Source: a virus (taxonomy: Duplodnaviria > Caudoviricetes). From it: a stretch of DNA of 64,000 bases. Under the pieces are notes generated by a model that did not search any database, was not told where the DNA came from, and saw only the letters and a program-made list of their open reading frames with translations. Numbering within the stretch: position 1 is the first letter of the stretch; every line of letters starts with the position of its first letter. Below are positions 3,498 to 39,256 of the stretch, one piece after another. A program made the position numbers and the translations under genes. The DNA is taken from positions 32,119 through 96,118 of the IMG/VR virus record IMGVR_UViG_3300044656_000123; one strand, 5' to 3'.

Positions 3498-3904
3498 CGC
3501 AGCAACTTCACTTTCAAGACATCAGATAACCATATATAGCTCGTTCGCTTCACAGTATACCCTAGTATATCGTGCATGGTATCCTCTGGTATCCAGTCAA
3601 ATTTACCGAGGCCCTTTTGCAATCGCACCGTTTTGTCAGTGTAGTTCGGTATAAATCCGTTTGCTGACGGCGGTGTGCATTCATACCTTAATCGAAGGTT
3701 ATGTATTCGGGCTGCTTGGTCGGTAGTAACATAGCCATACTTGTCGCTTACGCTGCCATATGGTACGATCTGCCTAAACTCATCTATAAATTCGCTGTCG
3801 CTCATCGGGTTTTCTGCGTTCTGTCGAAAACCGTTGTGCGTGTGCATGATAGTCAAAATTTGCTCATCGCTTAACCGATGATTCTCTACGGTAGCTGTAG
3901 TCAT
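3377..3904 (-). CDS. putative DNA-binding protein with two AT-hook-like PVGRPRT motifs
   Basis: AAGGAG SD; repeated GRPR motif at the C-terminus. Confidence 0.6.
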   Translation of the reverse strand: MTTATVENHRLSDEQILTIMHTHNGFRQNAENPMSDSEFIDEFRQIVPYGSVSDKYGYVTTDQAARIHNLRLRYECTPPSANGFIPNYTDKTVRLQKGLGKFDWIPEDTMHDILGYTVKRTSYIWLSDVLKVKLLRWDYDKRKKAQEKRPVGRPRTRQIGPKNPVGRPRTKKSQS

Positions 3905-4304: not shown

Positions 4305-4706
4305 GTGGACAATACTAATTGGCGTCCAGCCCCGAACACGCGAGAAAACATCAAGACTCTTGCCGACGAACTAAATAAGGTCTACAACGGATTTGACGGG
4401 AGCATAGGCAGGATCTTAGATCGAAAATACCATGACCGTGACGCCTACGCCGCAATACGTAACTATAGGCGTCAAATGCTCGACTTGATTGAACGCATTG
4501 ACTTCATGATGATGATACAACAAGGTCTAGAGCACAAGGATTTTACTGAACTTGTATTATCAGGGATGCTCAGAGCAGGCGACGTACTGACATCATTGGA
4601 TTTTTTGTCAGAAATAGAGCATAGCGATGCAATAAGGCAAATCGAAAGAAAGGCGAGTAACCATGAGTCTAGGCGACGTAATGACAGTGGGCAACCTCTT
4701 AATTGA
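4305..4706 (+). CDS. hypothetical protein
   Basis: AGGAG SD, GTG start. Confidence 0.7.
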   Translation: MDNTNWRPAPNTRENIKTLADELNKVYNGFDGSIGRILDRKYHDRDAYAAIRNYRRQMLDLIERIDFMMMIQQGLEHKDFTELVLSGMLRAGDVLTSLDFLSEIEHSDAIRQIERKASNHESRRRNDSGQPLN

Positions 4707-5118
4707 GTTTGGCTTAGCAGTACTAGCTGTAAGGGGCATCAATACACAGCAAAATCACGGTGAGCGCATCAGAATTTTTGAAATCATGCAGGAGCGCGGC
4801 GCATTGATGACAACTGAGCAAATCATGTCTCTGCCTCCGCATGTACAAGAGCAGTTGGCTATTGAAATCGAAGAGAGGATCGAAGTAGCCTACAGAGACG
4901 CACAGCGCTACAACCAGCAAAAAGCTCTGCCTGCCCCGAAGCAAGCAGCAAAGAAACGCAATGTTTCATACGCCCCGCGTGGTCATGTAGCAACAGTAAA
5001 AAGTGCTACAAACAGCTATAACCCGGAAGATGAGGCGTATGATGATGAAGATGGAGCCGTGACCATACGGCGTAGTAATAGCCCTAAAAGGCGAATGAGC
5101 CGGGAAGAAGAATGGTAA
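4663..5118 (+). CDS. hypothetical protein
   Basis: ORF in operon. Confidence 0.65.
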   Translation: MSLGDVMTVGNLLIEFGLAVLAVRGINTQQNHGERIRIFEIMQERGALMTTEQIMSLPPHVQEQLAIEIEERIEVAYRDAQRYNQQKALPAPKQAAKKRNVSYAPRGHVATVKSATNSYNPEDEAYDDEDGAVTIRRSNSPKRRMSREEEW

Positions 5119-12450: not shown

Positions 12451-13188
12451 ATGGCTGAGCAAATTAAAGAGACGCACGATCAGAAACTTGAACGTTACAA
12501 GAAGAAGATTAAGGCCCTGCTAGAACTAGCTAAAAGTTCTAATCAGGAAGAGGCCGCAAGTGCTAGCGCTAAAGCGATGCAGCTATGTATGCAATTTAAC
12601 ATAGACGTAGCAGAGGCCGGGGAATGGACAGCAGACAGCTACGATACCCTAGACATCAAGATAGGGCGCGATAAATGGAAGCGCTTGCTGCTTGATGGGC
12701 TATGCAAGTACAACTTTTGTCGCCGCTTCTACCAAGCACGCTACGCACGTGCCTACATTGTAGGCGAGAAAGACAACCGTGAATTAGTAGAGCTTATGGT
12801 GTACAGCCTGATCAAGAGCCTAGAGGAGATGGCTAAAGAGGCGTACAAAAACTATGGCGTGGGCCATGCGCGTCACTGGAAAGATGAGTATTATACAGGT
12901 GCAACAGCAGCAATATGGGACCGCTTAGAGAAGGAAAGGGGAGCAGTTGAGCATGCCGCGCAAATTGAAGCCGCTTCGCCAGCAGGGACCGGGCTAGCTA
13001 CGCAAACGATGGCTCTAATTGTTGTAAAAAATGACGCGCTAGAAGAGGCGTGCAATCGCATTGTCAAGAACGTTAGAAAAGAGCCAAAGAAGCGCTACAA
13101 GTTTGATACTGGTGCGTTTCACCGTGGTTATGAGGACGGTAAAAATGTAGCGATGACAAACCGCAAACAGATCGGAGCAGCAAGCTAA
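12451..13188 (+). CDS. DUF2786-domain protein
   Basis: KKIKALLELAKSSNQEEAASASAKAMQLCMQFNI matches the DUF2786 N-terminal pattern. Confidence 0.75.
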   Translation: MAEQIKETHDQKLERYKKKIKALLELAKSSNQEEAASASAKAMQLCMQFNIDVAEAGEWTADSYDTLDIKIGRDKWKRLLLDGLCKYNFCRRFYQARYARAYIVGEKDNRELVELMVYSLIKSLEEMAKEAYKNYGVGHARHWKDEYYTGATAAIWDRLEKERGAVEHAAQIEAASPAGTGLATQTMALIVVKNDALEEACNRIVKNVRKEPKKRYKFDTGAFHRGYEDGKNVAMTNRKQIGAAS

Positions 13189-26203: not shown

Positions 26204-26338
26204 GTGAAAATCTATGATGAATCTCTGTATTGTGCAGAGTGCGATACAGAGATCAGTACTGAGCAAGCGCTATTTTGTGACGGTCTTTGTGATGATTGCT
26301 ATGAAGAGTGCGAAAAACTAAACACCAGCAAACAATAA
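26204..26338 (+). CDS. 44-aa Zn-finger peptide (not in track)
   Basis: AGGAG SD, GTG start; CAEC...CDGLCDDC. Confidence 0.6.
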   Translation: MKIYDESLYCAECDTEISTEQALFCDGLCDDCYEECEKLNTSKQ

Positions 26339-32672: not shown

Positions 32673-32985
32673 TTCTTTGCTCAGTTAGAGCCGTTTTTAG
32701 GGGCTTTACAGAGCTTAGACTAGGTAAGATACTAGGCTCTAGAGTAAAGCCCCTAAATCGTGCCTACAGGAGCAATAAACACTATATGCACACTGCACAT
32801 AACCATAGTACTATACACAGTAGGCATACAGTACTATACACACCAGCTATACACAGTACATACTGAGCAAGAAGTAAGGAGCAAGCGCAATGTACACACA
32901 ACACACCACACAGTACAGAGCACACCAGCTTACACAGTCTGCACACTACACACCAGCTATGTCTGCACTCTACCTCTACATAATG

Positions 32986-33179
32986 TTAGGCGCAACTAAT
33001 AACAACGTTAGCACAATGCACAACTATGTATCATGCATAGCTACCTCGGTGTTTTGTGTAGTACCTACATTTTTGTTAGGAGTCCCTATAATCAAGTCAA
33101 TTTCTAAGATAACATTATTGTTAGTCACACCTAATCACATTGTTTAGACTGGACTAACACCAGAGTTAGACGCGGCTAA
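32986..33179. repeat. TTAG-N6-CTAA dyad array
   Basis: Perfect copies at 32986, 33121, 33144 and 33166; one-mismatch copy at 33076. Confidence 0.75.
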
Positions 33180-33399
33180 TTTTTCCTGGTGTTGTGCCTA
33201 ACACAGCTTGGTGGATAGAAACACCGAACTAAAATAAAGATTCTAGTTATAATCGAATTTCGGCGCGTTTAAAAGGCCGCTCAAAGGTGCTGGCAAGCGG
33301 CCTAACAAGGTAGTAACTGTCAATAGCACTATAAAGATAGAGGCTTACAATGCTCCCCACCTACCTTGTTCAGAGAGTATACAACGCAAGAAGGCCCGG

Positions 33400-34050
33400 A
33401 GTCCAGCACAACAAACAGTTTTGTGGATGGTCCACAAAACTGTACAAAAATCCACAAAACTGCATGACGCGGCTCTACAGGCTTTGTCAAGGTACCACAA
33501 AAATACAAAATCCCTAATTTTTCCACAAATTTGTCCAACGCACTCAGCCCGCTCTACAGGCCGATCCAAGGCATATTTTAGCAAAATTGTGGAAGAAAAT
33601 GGACCCTTACAAAAATATCCACAAAAATCAATGCAAAGAGACCCCTATATAGCAAAAAAGTGACGTTTTAAAATAAAACCAAAAAGAACTTATATTATAT
33701 TATTTATATATATATGTATATATAGTAATTATTACTTATATATAGTCTTATATTTTTGTAAGCATATTTCCTTGCATTGATTTTTATTTTTGTATGTCGG
33801 TATCCAGTCGTCCACATTTTTGCATTGATATTCCTTCCCCCTTTTTCTTCCACATTTTTGTCAAAAATATGCCTCGCGCCGCTCCCCACCTGCCCTGAGT
33901 GCCTTGGACAAATTTGTGGAAAATTGGTATATACCAGTGCTGTGAAAAAGCTTCCCCGTTGGCTTCACACACTTTTGTGGAAAATGGCGCATATTTGTGG
34001 ATTTCCACAAATCCGTCAAAATGCGGCCTTCCATAATTCTGCATACCCCA
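33400..34050. other. putative replication origin with DnaA-box-like repeats and AT-rich core
   Basis: TTWTNCACA matches at 33519, 33915, 33941 and 33976 plus about 8 TCCACA/TGTGGA variants; AT-rich 33665-33790; 20-bp inverted repeat 33519-33538/33904-33923. Confidence 0.65.
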
Positions 34051-34225
34051 CAGAATGCCCCTTGCACTGACTGACCCCCTACGTCAAAAATGGCGAAGTA
34101 GGATACCATCTAGGTTCACTGTAGTAGCTTTATTCGTACAGCCTGAAACGAAGAAGGGCCTTGCAAACCCTCGGTAGGTACAATCACCCATCGAAGCTCT
34201 ACAAGGCCCCTAAAATGTTGTGTTT

Positions 34226-35399: not shown

Positions 35400-35665
35400 C
35401 TGTATAGCTCCTTTGGACTCCATTCATAGTTGTTATCGCCCCGGTAACGTACCAGATCGCCCGGTTTGATAGCAGCATTTGTACTGAGTTGAATCTGCTC
35501 TTGTTTGTAGTTCAGCGCAATGACGTGGTTATTGCCAAGCACGCGCCTCACGTTAATAACAGTGTAGATCTCCGAGTCTCGCCTGAACAGCCTTTTTAGC
35601 TGCCTGCAAAGATTGCCCATTAGATCTAACATAGTCACAAGTAAATGCATTAGCGCCGTACTCAT
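35396..35665 (-). CDS. hypothetical protein, start uncertain
   Basis: Stop overlaps the next start; resembles the downstream small gene (YTV...GDLV/GDIV). Confidence 0.5.
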   Translation of the reverse strand: MSTALMHLLVTMLDLMGNLCRQLKRLFRRDSEIYTVINVRRVLGNNHVIALNYKQEQIQLSTNAAIKPGDLVRYRGDNNYEWSPKELYR

Positions 35666-36287
35666 TCCAGTCCCCTTGTAGCCGTAAGTTCTTGTAACTG
35701 TTCGTGTTAAGCTCTGACACTAGGTAGCGCCAGCGTTTATCAAAGTCTCCTGAGATGCCAACATGGTGCATCATGGTAGGCTTACATGTTAACACATATA
35801 CGGCTTCGCATGCAAGATCGTAATTTTTGTTGCCTTTTGTCTTGCCTAGATCGTCAAGGCTTTTGCGCTCGAACACCGGGACACTTCGCAAAAGCGATTC
35901 GCGTGTTTTGTAGATGTTTTTATGACCACAAATGTAATCTGAGTACAAGACGTGGAGCCTGTTTAAGTAGTCCCGGTCTGTTTCGTCAGCGTAACGCCTG
36001 ATTGTCTCTGCGATGCCGACGCGAAACCTGCTTAGCCCATATAACTGAATATCAGCTAAGAACTCAGGGCAGACGATTTTGCAGTTACGCATGCGATACG
36101 TAAGCTTATGTACGTGATCCCATACGTCTAAGCTGTGTGCTACGTACTGTTTGCGCGTCGGCAGGCACGTTGCAACGATAATGCCAGCTTCAACGTCGTG
36201 AAGTTTCTTAAATCTTCCGCCTTCCCCGCGCTTTCTCGCTTGCGCAATTTGGCTCATTCTTGGAGATTTTTCACCCTTTTTCGGCAT
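35553..36287 (-). CDS. GIY-YIG homing-endonuclease-like protein with two tandem domains
   Basis: AGIIVATC...QYVAHS...LYG..RF and AVYVLTC...HVGISGDFDKRW...NLRLQGDWNEYGANAF. Confidence 0.75.
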   Translation of the reverse strand: MPKKGEKSPRMSQIAQARKRGEGGRFKKLHDVEAGIIVATCLPTRKQYVAHSLDVWDHVHKLTYRMRNCKIVCPEFLADIQLYGLSRFRVGIAETIRRYADETDRDYLNRLHVLYSDYICGHKNIYKTRESLLRSVPVFERKSLDDLGKTKGNKNYDLACEAVYVLTCKPTMMHHVGISGDFDKRWRYLVSELNTNSYKNLRLQGDWNEYGANAFTCDYVRSNGQSLQAAKKAVQARLGDLHCY

Positions 36288-36387
36288 TTTTCTACCTAAA
36301 ACTTGAAAATATTGAGGATGAAAGAAACATCGCTAATAGGTCGTCCACATCAACAAAATTAACGTTTTATCATCATCCTCTTGACAT

Positions 36388-36416
36388 ATTGTACAGTATT
36401 TATTACAAGTTGTCAA
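36388..36416 (-). promoter_or_regulatory. sigma70-type promoter for the GIY-YIG operon
   Basis: Minus-strand TTGACA-17-TACAAT inside the inverted repeat CTCTTGACA/TGTCAAGAG. Confidence 0.75.
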
Positions 36417-36427
36417 GAGATATAGGC

Positions 36428-36545
36428 AAAATAAAAGAGTCAAGTGTAAGTTGACTCTTTTAAAGTATGGCGATGCTGGAAGGCTGTCGCTAATACCATG
36501 TCAGCCTGCGGTTTCTTGTACCAGAAAAAACCAGAAATGTCAATT
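36428..36545 (-). ncRNA. putative small RNA, unit 1
   Basis: Promoter TTGCAT-17-TACACT (36580-36552) plus a second TGcTATAAT (36594-36586); terminator AAAAGAGTCAA/TTGACTCTTTT at about 36433-36460. Confidence 0.6.
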
Positions 36546-36605
36546 GCGCTGAGTGTATCAGAAAAGCGCGGAAAATGCAACATTGATTATAGCATGGTGG
36601 AAGGC

Positions 36606-36765
36606 AAAATAAAAGAGCCGCCATAGCATTTCTGCTACGTTCTCACGCGGCTCTCTCGATGCAGCTAGGAGTTTGACCGCTCCCTACTGTCTACGCGGTT
36701 GGAATAAGTCTTTACATGCAATTCGCCTCAGAGAAGCACCCGTTCTTTCGGCACGCCTTTGGCAT
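36606..36765 (-). ncRNA. putative small RNA, unit 2
   Basis: TGcTATGAT (36780-36772); terminator stem AGAGCCGC/GCGGCTCT with U-tract; internal GGAG-TTTGACCG-CTCC hairpin. Confidence 0.6.
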
Positions 36766-36791
36766 GAACGTATCATAGCACAGCCGAGCAT

Positions 36792-36914
36792 AAAAATAAA
36801 GGGCTACCTGCACGTAACCCTTTATCGTCAGAGGCGAAATGTTACTGTCGCTACTGCTATGTCAGCGTTTATTGAATGAAAGGAATAACAAGTGTGGAAA
36901 ACAACCTGTCCATA
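36792..36914 (-). ncRNA. putative small RNA, unit 3
   Basis: TGtTATACT (36929-36921); terminator ATAAAGGG/CCCTTTAT with U-tract. Confidence 0.6.
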
Positions 36915-36941
36915 AGGCTAAGTATAACATATTGCACAGCA

Positions 36942-37038
36942 TAAGAGAAGGCCCGAACATAGCCGATCCGGGCCTAACACAATAAATTAAAGGAGAATGA
37001 CACGTTGTATTACGCGCTACCTACCTGTGAAGTAAGGC
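36942..37038 (-). ncRNA. putative small RNA, unit 4
   Basis: TGtTATAAT (37053-37045); terminator AGGCCCG/CGGGCCT; carries anti-SD CAUUCUCCUUU. Confidence 0.6.
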
Positions 37039-37051
37039 AGGTAGATTATAA

Positions 37052-37145
37052 CAAAAGCAAAGAGCAGAGTAAAGATTTCTGGCAATCCCTACTCTGCTCT
37101 TTGCTTAGTGACGTGGATGGAAGTATCGTTATCTCGATGAGTTGC
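37052..37145 (-). ncRNA. putative small RNA, unit 5
   Basis: TGaTACACT (37160-37152); 15-bp stem AGCAAAGAGCAGAGT/ACTCTGCTCTTTGCT. Confidence 0.6.
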
Positions 37146-37163
37146 AAGCAAAGTGTATCACAC

Positions 37164-37256
37164 AAAGAACAAGTACGCAAGAGCGTCAGTGATGGAAGGG
37201 GCATTAGCAACCATCACTGACGCTCTTGCGTACATTATCAAATGTAATTCTGGTTC
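37164..37256 (-). ncRNA. putative small RNA, unit 6
   Basis: TGcTATGAT (37271-37263); perfect 23-bp stem 37173-37195/37211-37233. Confidence 0.6.
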
Positions 37257-37277
37257 TGTTCTATCATAGCACTACTG

Positions 37278-37911
37278 TCAATACCTGATGAAGTACACTC
37301 CGTTCCCGACGCTGTATTTAACATACGCTACTGCTGTCGGGTGCGCTCCCCAATTCATAGATGATCCTGTAAACGTGTTGCCATTTACGCTTTCCACTAC
37401 ACCAACATGGCCGAGGCCGAAAGCTCCTTGCACATTGGCGTTAAGCTGGAATATATCACCGCGTTGCGGCCTAGTGTCCACAGTCCAATGAAAATCTCGT
37501 GCGCGTGCTACCCATTGGTTAGCGTTACTCTGTGTCGTCCAAGGTACGAAGATACCATGTAAGTCGTGATAACGTTTGTTGGCGTACCATGTGCATTGAG
37601 GGAAACTAAAGAAGTTGCCAACGCCTTTTACTGCCTGCATTGTTTGTCCTTTCACGGTTAAACAGATTGTCTCACCGGGAAAGATCAAGTTTGCGTTAGG
37701 CAATCCGTTTATTGTCTGTAAATGCTGCCAAGTCGTGTTGTGTTGCTGTGCTATACCGCTCAACGTATCGCCAAAGTGAACCGTCACACCTAAACTGCAT
37801 GGCGGCGCTGCATGGGTGACAATGATACCTGATACCGTCAACGACAATGGTATCACCAGTACTATAAGTATTAGCGATAATATACGTGGGTTTCGGATTA
37901 TGACGCTCCAT
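37278..37911 (-). CDS. secreted LysM + CHAP cell-wall hydrolase, with apparent +1 frameshift near the N-terminus
   Basis: LysM VHFGDTLSGIA...NGLPNANLIFPGETI; CHAP QCTWYA...GHVGVVE; the SD/ATG at 37911 is out of frame with the signal helix. Confidence 0.85.
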
Positions 37912-37925
37912 GTCTGTTCTCCTTA

Positions 37926-38303
37926 CTAGTAAAGCCTTCTAATATCCAAATCCGGGTTAGGGGGCCTATCAAGTAACGATCCATCGACAACCGTTACTTT
38001 GACGCTATTTTTTCTTCCCCTCATACTTTTAACGCGCTCAGCAATATTAGGGAAGTAAACACCTAGTTTTCTGTCCAGTTTTCCTAGCAAATTTGAGCCA
38101 GGAAGCTCTGCATACGATTCAAGCAGGCTGAGCGCCCGGTTATGCATACCGCTAAGATCTTTGTGTAGCGCATAGAGTTGATCGAAGTTCTTCTTCACCC
38201 TGCCTAGCAGAGTTTCAAGGTCTTGAACTTTTAGCCGTAACCCGGTGTTTTCGGCTCTTAATCGCTTCAACTCATCTAATATTTCATCATTCTCCATATT
38301 CAA
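37926..38303 (-). CDS. coiled-coil hypothetical protein
   Basis: GAGGT SD; heptad pattern. Confidence 0.7.
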   Translation of the reverse strand: MNMENDEILDELKRLRAENTGLRLKVQDLETLLGRVKKNFDQLYALHKDLSGMHNRALSLLESYAELPGSNLLGKLDRKLGVYFPNIAERVKSMRGRKNSVKVTVVDGSLLDRPPNPDLDIRRLY

Positions 38304-38541
38304 CCTCGTAGCATAACAACTTGCGAACTACATATTTATGTGTAAATATCCAGTGCCTAGCTATGCTATAATCCCTTTTGTCTCTTGCAATGTCAAGGCC
38401 ACAACACCAGTGTACAGTAATTCCATGCCGCTCTAGACATTGCATATGCTTGATGAGTTGATCACAATGCAAGTCTGTCCACCTGCGGGGCCATCGCATA
38501 AATTCATATTCAGGATAATGTCTCACAACATAATGTACCAT
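38287..38541 (-). CDS. hypothetical protein
   Basis: AAGGTG SD. Confidence 0.6.
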   Translation of the reverse strand: MVHYVVRHYPEYEFMRWPRRWTDLHCDQLIKHMQCLERHGITVHWCCGLDIARDKRDYSIARHWIFTHKYVVRKLLCYEVEYGE

Positions 38542-38635: not shown

Positions 38636-39256
38636 ATGGATAAATTAATAGAATACGCTGACAATGTAGATATTTGGGACCTGCAACCCGGTGAACCTAG
38701 TATATGGCATGAGAGATTTGAATATTACAGGCTCATGGGGCCTTTGCGTACTATCGGCAAAGCATACAGGCGCTACCGTAAGGATATAGATAACGTTGAA
38801 ACTACCGCTTCTGCAACGCATTATTGGCGCGAGAAAGCGGCTCAATGGAAGTGGGAGGAGCGTGCTCAGGCGTGGGACGCTACAGTACAGGAAGAAAAAG
38901 AGGAACGAGCGCTTTCCGTTTTCAGCGAAGGTCTTTCTTTATCGCATGAGCGTGTTGCAAAGCTAAAATTAATAGCGCAAAAGCTTGAGGAATACATATT
39001 AGACCCTCGTACAACGCGAGTATCTCCGCACATCATTGAGCAATATCGTGGACTACTAGACGACATTGCTAAAGAACGCGGTGAACGCAGTAACAAGGTG
39101 TCAATTTCCGGTCCTTCAGGTGGTCCGATTGTGATTGAAACGCAGTGGGGGCGTGGCGGGTCTGCGTCAGAAGCGTGGAAGTCGTTACCGTCGCCAGTTA
39201 TAGACTCCGTTGTAGAAGAAATCACCGATACAGAGAATGGCAGCAAAGCAGACTAA
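38636..39256 (+). CDS. terminase small subunit (probable)
   Basis: Directly upstream of TerL; WDLQPGEP...YRLMGPLRTI...WKWEERAQAWD; SGPSGGPI C-terminal motif. Confidence 0.75.
   Translation: MDKLIEYADNVDIWDLQPGEPSIWHERFEYYRLMGPLRTIGKAYRRYRKDIDNVETTASATHYWREKAAQWKWEERAQAWDATVQEEKEERALSVFSEGLSLSHERVAKLKLIAQKLEEYILDPRTTRVSPHIIEQYRGLLDDIAKERGERSNKVSISGPSGGPIVIETQWGRGGSASEAWKSLPSPVIDSVVEEITDTENGSKAD

Follow-up and report, generated by a model that had tools for sequence, protein, structure and literature searches.

A head-to-tail array of six predicted small-RNA genes between the lysis cassette and the next operon of a soil phage

The window analysed here is a 64,000-nt stretch of phage DNA that forms the right-hand 64 kb of the 96-kb IMG/VR record IMGVR_UViG_3300044656_000123 (linear class, ~83% complete). 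On its minus strand, the endolysin gene that ends the lysis cassette is separated from a 244-residue open reading frame (ORF) by a 990-bp gap (36288-37277) that contains no ORF of 80 amino acids (aa) or longer; both flanking genes are on the minus strand. The gap parses into six minus-strand units of ~92-160 nt, numbered U1-U6 along that strand from the endolysin end, and the array they form spans 844 bp. All unit coordinates given below are window positions. The reading we favour, held with slightly more belief than doubt, takes the locus as a row of autonomous small-RNA (sRNA) genes, or 'RNA morons', of which at least U3 would be an RNA that base-pairs as an anti-Shine-Dalgarno (anti-SD) sequence.

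The anatomy of the units, read from the minus strand, is as follows.

U1, 37162..37271, minus strand: box TGcTATGAT (37271-37263), a single-stranded stretch of ~30 nt, a hairpin with a perfect 23-bp stem (37233-37211 / 37195-37173) and the tail TTGTTCTTTGTG.
U2, 37054..37160, minus strand: box TGaTACACT (37160-37152), a single-stranded conserved motif AUACUUCCAUCCAC (37126-37113), a hairpin (37106-37084 / 37078-37055) and the tail TTTTG.
U3, 36938..37053, minus strand: -35 box TTTACT, box TGtTATAAT (37053-37045), a 5' seed CCUUACUU (37037-37030), an internal seed GUGUCAUUCUCCUUU (37003-36989) and a terminator hairpin (36975-36949).
U4, 36790..36929, minus strand: box TGtTATACT (36929-36921), a CU-rich segment UUAUUCCUUUCAUUC (36888-36874), the motif GCUGACAUAGCAGUAGCGACAG (36866-36845), a 13-bp hairpin (36826-36795) and the tail TTTTAT.
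U5, 36604..36780, minus strand: box TGcTATGAT (36780-36772), an invariant 14-mer GAAUUGCAUGUAAA (36724-36711), a hairpin (36689-36662), a branched terminator (36655-36613) and the tail TTTTATTTTG.
U6, 36428..36594, minus strand: boxes TGcTATAAT (36594-36586) and TGaTACACT (36560-36552), the motif GCUGACAUGGUAUUAGCGACAG (36505-36484), a 12-bp hairpin (36462-36432) and the tail TTTTG.

An earlier, sequence-only reading of this DNA had placed seven promoter boxes at 37271, 37160, 37053, 36929, 36780, 36594 and 36560, and all seven were found at those minus-strand coordinates. Between 36552 and 37271 the pattern TGnTAnnnT occurs seven times on the minus strand and not once on the plus strand, compared with a genome-wide rate of ~1.07 per kb per strand (103 minus-strand matches in 96 kb). 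The array boxes match TATAAT at 4-6 of 6 positions. A recognisable -35 box is present in U3 alone (TTTACT, 17-nt spacer); an extended -10 (TGn) box can work without a -35 box. As putative promoters the boxes fit the extended -10 class used by primary sigma factors, and the hairpins fit predicted intrinsic terminators. The RNAs predicted from these boundaries would be ~92, 92, 99, 125, 160 and 118-150 nt long for U1 to U6, respectively.

All six hairpins are oriented to a minus-strand reading. Their stems measure 23 bp in U1, 23 bp with two G.U pairs in U2, 9 bp in U3, 13 bp in U4, 9 bp plus an inner 6-bp helix in U5 and 12 bp in U6. The claim that every unit ends in a hairpin followed by a U-rich tract holds for the hairpins and for the tracts of U2, U4, U5 and U6, which are good, and of U1, which is fair; it does not hold well for U3, whose tail is poor (TCTCTTATG). 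A generic terminator scan returned six sites in 3 kb, where shuffles gave 2.8 +/- 1.7; all six lie on the minus strand. Five of the six rows fell inside the array, where they correspond to four distinct hairpins (U2, U3, U4 and U6); those of U1 and U5 were recognised from the sequence and by folding. Relative to shuffled sequences, the folds of U1 (z = -10.6; -48.4 kcal/mol) and U2 (z = -8.2) stand out, and those of the remaining units are modest (-1.4 to -2.6). The U1 hairpin appears to double as the endolysin terminator, that is, as the predicted 3' end of the endolysin transcript.

The packing of the units is tight. At all five internal junctions the next box begins ~1-20 nt after the preceding T-tract, in agreement with the earlier claim that each promoter sits within ~20 nt of the previous terminator; by our own arithmetic the chance of this is ~0.027 per junction. 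U4 and U6 have a 22-nt motif in common (19/22 identity) and look like paralogues, and otherwise a self-search of the array revealed no internal similarity. The description of the unit bodies as largely unrelated needs correction for this pair.

Several observations bear on the coding potential and strand of the array. No minus-strand ORF with a Shine-Dalgarno (SD) site at credible spacing was found in the array, and the absence of any minus-strand frame with a usable SD agrees with the initial impression that the stretch holds no credible ORF. No credible plus-strand gene underlies the array either; frames of 71 and 48 aa cross the hairpins and are not conserved. Because peptide-level similarity between the phage arrays described below is fragmentary and switches reading frame on both strands, we regard the units as non-coding. 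ARAGORN identified no tRNA or tmRNA genes in the window. No Rfam family matched at gathering score, the best matches (E ~0.9) being unrelated eukaryotic families and those at E up to 10 being noise, and no CRISPR-repeat-like or ToxI-like repeat structure was present in the array. The sense strand folds better than its antisense by 3.6-16.8 kcal/mol in 5/5 arrays. The terminator stems of the window contain six G.U and no A.C pairs, and the G.U pairs would be mismatches on the other strand.

Strain variation was compared in contigs from four soil or rhizosphere runs; these are low-depth data that supply small supporting points, and the uncovered parts are uninformative. A variant at 36647, seen in two runs, converts a C-G pair to U.G on the minus-strand RNA. 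One strain contig (run X7) carries five changes, all within the 7-nt loop of the U6 hairpin (36444-36450). The X7 loop is approximately its own reverse complement and the stem is intact, a pattern that resembles inversion of a hairpin loop. Among the near-identical strains in the contigs of these four runs, no gain or loss of units was seen; the differences are point variants, with no joints.

Homologous arrays are present in related phages, all represented by metagenomic contigs: L133 (identical to L134) and L136, which are Logan contigs from other samples, and a third lineage, L005/L135. The endolysins of L133 and L136 are 77% and 82% identical to that of the window, and both contigs have the same portal-terminase-lysis synteny. 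Directly after the endolysin stop, each carries a homologous array of at least four units in the same order, U1-U2-U3-U4, and each contig ends inside its array. Both arrays begin with TGaTATACT, ~30 nt and a long hairpin, as at U1 of the window, and continue with more box-body-hairpin units; the boxes of these arrays (TGaTATACT, TGtTATACT and TGcTATACT) are at homologous places. Over 386 nt of array, L133 and L136 share 76% identity. The proposal of tandem, separately promoted and terminated non-coding units on the minus strand is borne out at the level of sequence, and these two arrays strengthen it.

The pattern of conservation is uneven along each unit. Between phages, the -10 boxes, the short single-stranded motifs and the presence of a hairpin are kept, and the stem sequences are replaced with compensating changes. 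The U2 motif ACUUCCAUC is retained in L133 and L136, and its stems (23, 17 and 20 bp) differ in sequence across the three phages. A 16-mer of U3 (CGTGTCATTCTCCTTT) is identical in the three phages and the U3 terminator is kept; in L133 and L136 this unit has a -35 box TTGAAT or TTGAAC at 18-nt spacing. A model of the U3 family (R1) scored 77-101 bits in L133, L136, L005 and L135, and when run against the 96-kb genome it found no further significant U3 copy (best extras, E ~0.2). Unit 4 of L133 matches U6 of the window, and more loosely U4, through the motif GACAUrGyAkUAGCGrC (19/22 with U4) and the run-up to the terminator.

L005 and L135 are more divergent in the endolysin (59% identity to the window; large terminase, 82%). 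Between the endolysin and a conserved TTGACA-17-TACAAT promoter they contain a single, U3-like unit (UUAUCUCCUUUUUC), which in L005 scores 77 bits with the family model, a model that includes that unit. U3 is the unit common to most relatives. A homologue of U5 is located at a different genomic place in L005 (3428-3572, minus strand), behind a 305-aa ORF and with another unit before it; the 14-mer is invariant between the two, and 6/28 predicted pairs survive by changes in both partners. Comparison of the locus among related phages thus gives at least four units in L133/L136, one in L005/L135 and a relocated U5. From the homologous arrays, the single-unit L005/L135, the relocated U5, the U4/U6 paralogues and the differing loci of distant phages, we conclude that the array is inherited within a small clade, with units gained, lost, duplicated and moved as modules.

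Pattern searches beyond this clade were negative. The U3 pattern gave 0 matches in IMG/VR, the U4/U6 pattern 15 chance matches there, and the U5 14-mer pattern L005 plus 119 chance matches; a longer U5 pattern gave 3 matches in 185,579 species genomes, all of them chance. Two contigs reached with a TerL profile (L155 and L156, large terminase 51% identity) were rejected as carriers, as their gap holds a tRNA-like sequence and not this array. A junction TTGACAG-(2-3 nt)-AGTGCTATrmT ends the upstream ORF both in L005 (3700-3720, the 305-aa ORF) and in the window (37263-37283, the endolysin), with the TGA stop inside TTGACA; this suggests that units move together with the junction.

The clearest indication of a function comes from U3. 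Perfect complements to U3 of at least 7 nt were present at 42 of the 119 phage gene starts, as against 15.6 +/- 5.8 for shuffled sequences (0/300 reach the observed count) and 13 for the antisense control. At a length of at least 8 nt the count was 23 of 119, as against 4.3 +/- 3.1 for shuffles (1/300 reach it) and 4 for the control. Two segments of U3 account for this complementarity to ribosome-binding sites (RBSs): CCUUACUU at the predicted 5' end and AUUCUCCUU (37000-36992) in the single-stranded stretch before the terminator. The former pairs with AAGUAAGG, which extends the RBS in a phage-specific way at 12 early genes on the plus strand (8.8-32.9 kb), and the latter pairs with AAGGAGAAU at further RBSs. 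The RBS form AGUAAGGAG is present in the early/middle block and at the endolysin, and the structural genes are without it. In L005, the longest complement to the U3-like unit within 17 kb is 11 nt long and falls at the RBS of the 305-aa ORF, which suggests that the complementarity of the pairing seed extends to the L005 unit. Neither the rest of the phage nor L005 contains the complement of the invariant U5 14-mer. U3 also matches the first four codons of the second lysis gene over 9-12 nt (ATGGAGAATGA; window 38297, L133 6358), a match that we discounted as no better than chance.

The RBSs of the phage differ by gene class. At least 14 early/middle genes (window 5600-33000, plus strand) have the extended RBS AGTAAGGAG, often AAGTAAGGAG, 6-9 nt before the ATG, and structural genes have shorter GGAG or AGGAG sites. 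Early-gene leaders with AAGUAAGGAG(AAU) include those of the genes starting at 12451, 26352 and 28642; the late-gene leader at 39237 lacks this motif.

In the mechanism we favour, six autonomous non-coding transcription units would have been inserted between the lysis cassette and the next operon. Each would be read from the minus strand by host RNA polymerase carrying the primary sigma factor, starting at an extended -10 promoter, mostly without a -35 box, and stopping at the unit's own intrinsic terminator. At least some of the units would act in trans by pairing through the short single-stranded motifs located 5' of the terminator. The two CU-rich seeds of U3, complementary to the extended phage RBS AAGUAAGGAG(AAU), would occlude the SD regions of phage early/middle mRNAs, and perhaps those of host mRNAs as well, much as CU-rich sRNAs of Gram-positive bacteria do.

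A number of points weigh against this mechanism. Promoter use, RNA ends and abundance, and likewise the transcription, trans action and targets of the units, are all inferred from sequence. Five of the six promoters are without a -35 box, and the box consensus may not be that of the host, which is probably a member of the Ktedonobacteraceae. The terminator tail of U3 is poor. Independent relatives number only three, and two of the arrays are cut by contig ends. One terminator is enough for insulation and L005 has a single unit, which implies that most units are dispensable. RBS complementarity is not enriched in the phage for units 1, 2, 4 and 6, and the enrichment for U5 is mild (25 vs 14.2 at a word length of 7; 12/300 shuffles reach it). 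When six seeds were scored by duplex energy against 126 phage translation starts, nothing exceeded shuffled seeds, apart from U3's own antisense. Because the motif was already known when the U3 test was designed, and because any CU-rich stretch matches SD sites generally, the U3 complementarity is a good lead to an anti-SD RNA, not proof of one.

Alternative explanations for the array were weighed against the same evidence. The locus could be a transcriptional boundary, in which stacked terminators keep late (lysis) transcription out of the operon that follows, close to the origin; the -10-like boxes would then serve to re-load polymerase or be by-products, and the RNAs would be inert. Such a role would suit the position of the array exactly between two same-strand operons, the use of the U1 hairpin as endolysin terminator, the fact that a promoter directly after a terminator is common elsewhere in this phage, and the ability of L005 to manage with a single unit. 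We nevertheless consider it unlikely: six successive terminators are superfluous where one 23-bp hairpin suffices, and a boundary leaves unexplained the conserved single-stranded motifs beside replaced stems, the U5 homologue with compensatory pairs at another locus and the RBS complementarity of U3. At 23 bp (16-20 bp in the relatives), the perfect stems of U1 and U2 are longer than a terminator needs and point to another possibility, that the RNAs are protein-binding decoys or sponges, or counter-defence RNAs acting as host-RNA mimics, RNase III substrates or inhibitors of RNA-guided or RNA-sensing defence. Perfect stems of 16-23 bp are long enough for RNase III. Five of the six units lack clear target complementarity in the phage, and fast turnover of units is what accessory or counter-defence loci typically show; yet the array shows no resemblance to Rfam families, no CRISPR- or ToxI-like repeats, no tRNA-like fold and no linked protein partner, and a decoy role is, in our estimate, quite unlikely.

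Two further explanations are less probable still. Some units could encode tiny, possibly leaderless peptides, since leaderless translation occurs in several Gram-positive-like phyla. U4 has an ATG 8 nt after its -10 box that opens a frame of 14 hydrophobic residues, U5 an ATG 7 nt after its box that opens one of 17 residues with four cysteines, and a 47-aa frame in U6 is a further candidate. The 17-aa frame of U5, however, is broken in L005 by a 2-nt indel and is without a start codon there; its conserved 14-mer spans the would-be stop codon. Together with the absence of SD sites and the switching of frame between phages, these features make peptides very unlikely. The sequence-only reading had itself proposed that plasmids, satellites or prophages were the source of orphan counter-transcribed or incompatibility RNAs, captured by the phage to silence competing mobile elements. 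Each unit is indeed an sRNA-like promoter-hairpin module, and the units differ from each other. This origin is contradicted, because neither strand of the array had a BLASTN match, even at E 0.05, among 72,556 plasmids and 50,697 phage records, and because the units, common to the related phages by descent, are vertically inherited. No counter-transcribed RNA (ctRNA) or C4 family of Rfam was matched, the U5 pattern gave chance matches alone in the 185,579 species genomes, and the complementarity that has support is that of U3 to the phage's own RBSs. We rate capture as highly improbable.

The genes around the array follow a simple minus-strand order, from the lysis cassette through the endolysin (37856-37278), the 990-bp gap, a promoter, the 244-aa ORF and a 322-aa helix-turn-helix protein to an origin-like region rich in DnaA boxes. 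The neighbouring features are the following.

Small and large terminase genes, starting at 38636, plus strand.
Endolysin ORF, 37278..37856, minus strand: LysM plus CHAP, the final gene of the lysis cassette (Pfam CHAP 2.5e-15, LysM 8.1e-12).
Promoter of the downstream operon, 36385..36416 (boxes 36416-36388), minus strand: TTGACA-17-TACAAT, canonical; it marks where the array ends, and L005 and L135 retain it.
244-aa ORF, 35553..36287, minus strand: downstream of the array with a leader of ~100 nt, without a Pfam family and with a weak PHROG match to a homing endonuclease.

The TGA stop of the endolysin lies 6 nt ahead of the first array box. At the other end of this gene, a strong RBS AGTAAGGAG (37927) and an ATG at 37911 open a 71-aa frame (window 37696-37927) that overlaps, out of frame, the start of the 192-aa LysM plus CHAP frame (GTG at 37856). 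L133 has the same split, a 67-aa ORF followed by CHAP. The arrangement could reflect a pair of overlapping genes, a start called in the wrong place or a programmed frameshift. The origin-like region (window 32700-34200) contains many DnaA-box-like TTGTGGA/TCCACAA repeats around an AT/TA-rich core, and an iteron plus AT-rich region at 2150-3450 of contig L007 is analogous to it.

Public runs containing positions 35500-38500 are soil or rhizosphere metagenomes throughout, and no RNA run is listed among them. No close relative of the phage was found among 50,697 deposited phage records, where the best large-terminase match has 40% identity, and single-query searches of IMG/VR with the endolysin and with the 244-aa ORF found no relative. 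The closest non-phage homologues of the endolysin (44-54% identity) are chromosomal proteins of Ktedonobacteraceae and Thermosporothrix (Chloroflexota). Because these nearest non-phage homologues are chromosomal, that group is the likely host. Four endolysin homologues (P0005, P0007, P0010 and P0028) were rejected as phage relatives on account of their bacterial chromosomal contexts. L005 corresponds to IMGVR_UViG_3300044719_000257, which IMG/VR classes as a provirus, and from this class the phage lineage may be temperate.

Short RNA-like units also occur elsewhere in the genome. A second ORF-free gap, 1.48 kb long and read on the plus strand, lies before the window (G000:C1:16435-17916; L129 3640-5120). 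It contains a ~65-nt unit running from TGcTATAAT to a terminator (L129 ~3719-3790), then a TTGACA-17-TAATAT promoter, from which an ORF-free stretch of ~870 nt runs to a 16-bp palindromic terminator (L129 ~4700-4745), and after that stretch a further promoter-to-terminator unit of ~130 nt. Neither an Rfam match nor a homologue in L005 or L007 was found for this gap, which may be a large structured RNA. At G000:C1:13600-13785 (L162), on the plus strand, a TTGACA-17-TATACT promoter precedes ~145 nt and a terminator. The RBS and start of a 67-aa gene on the minus strand are matched in exact antisense by the 3' part of this unit, CTCCTTACTT; the unit is therefore likely to be a cis-antisense RNA, not a trans-acting anti-RBS cassette. 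Another unit, at G000:C1:15480-15575 (L129 2680-2775), consists of TATACT, ~45 nt that include CUUCUCCUUAUU and a 17-bp terminator. CUUCUCCUUAUU is complementary to AAUAAGGAGAA RBSs at 26337, 27138 and 31170, and the unit is followed by TTTTGTTATAAT, the same junction as that between U2 and U3. Because more short promoter-to-terminator non-coding units are present in the genome, the 870-nt one included, RNA-based regulation may be a general habit of this phage.

A more far-reaching version of the favoured reading is that the phage runs part of its development by RNA, from a modular, fast-evolving sRNA cassette behind the lysis genes. The conserved core of this cassette, U3, would mimic the anti-SD of the ribosome and be fitted to the AAGUAAGGAG(AAU) of a dozen or more early genes, so that one small RNA would shut off the whole early class, and perhaps strong-SD host mRNAs, with the other units adding host or competitor targets. 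We hold this version to be doubtful. Most known phage sRNAs are single genes from a small number of well-studied enterobacterial prophages, and a compact array of six differing, self-sufficient units would depart from that picture. The setting here is a barely studied soil phage lineage whose host probably belongs to the Ktedonobacteria. If the favoured reading is true, non-coding 'morons' evolve as a modular accessory cassette, like protein morons or counter-defence islands. The U3 hypothesis is testable, and a phage sRNA fitted to the phage's own RBS family could be a global translational switch. If the units are inert by-products of a terminator stack, the finding shrinks to an unusual intergenic architecture.

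Small, hairpin-rich and independently promoted regulatory RNAs of mobile elements include ctRNAs, the C4 RNA of P1/P7, the CI RNA of P4, lambda OOP and P22 sar. These RNAs overlap or adjoin the gene that they control and are complementary to it in cis. In contrast, no unit of the window overlaps an opposite-strand gene, and none has an Rfam match. A closer parallel in location is provided by lambdoid prophages, in which the stand-alone sRNA genes PasA/PasC/PasD, AgvB and AsxR are typically located directly beside the holin/lysozyme operon, their presence and copy number vary among phages and several can be near each other (10.64898/2026.05.13.724894). Like these, the sRNA-like genes of the window are phage-carried, adjoin the lysis cassette and vary among relatives. 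The Pas/AgvB/AsxR sites hold one or two Hfq-type sRNAs each, in enterobacterial prophages and with proven expression and targets, whereas the window has six heterologous predicted units head to tail within 844 bp of an unrelated soil phage, without sequence or Rfam similarity to them.

LhrC1-5 of Listeria monocytogenes use redundant CU-rich motifs, in a loop and in a single-stranded stretch, to block the SD of target mRNAs (PMC4132741). U3 likewise has two CU-rich anti-SD motifs, of which one is 5'-terminal and the other precedes the terminator in a single-stranded stretch. The LhrC genes are chromosomal, mutually homologous and under LisRK control; the window units, in contrast, are phage-borne, mostly unrelated in sequence and without similarity to LhrC, and, unlike the multicopy sibling sRNAs LhrC, Qrr and PrrF, only U4 and U6 among them share a motif. 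Morons are described as a transcriptionally autonomous promoter, gene and terminator inserted between conserved phage genes (PMC3594210) and present or absent among relatives. The window units are similarly promoter-payload-terminator modules between the same flanking features, in counts of six in the window, at least four in L133/L136 and one in L005/L135. The payload of classical morons is protein-coding, whereas that of the window is non-coding and its six modules are concatenated. For this head-to-tail packing of six heterologous non-coding modules, no counterpart was found in the literature searched. Belonging to none of these groups by sequence, the locus would work like Pas-type sRNAs, LhrC and morons.

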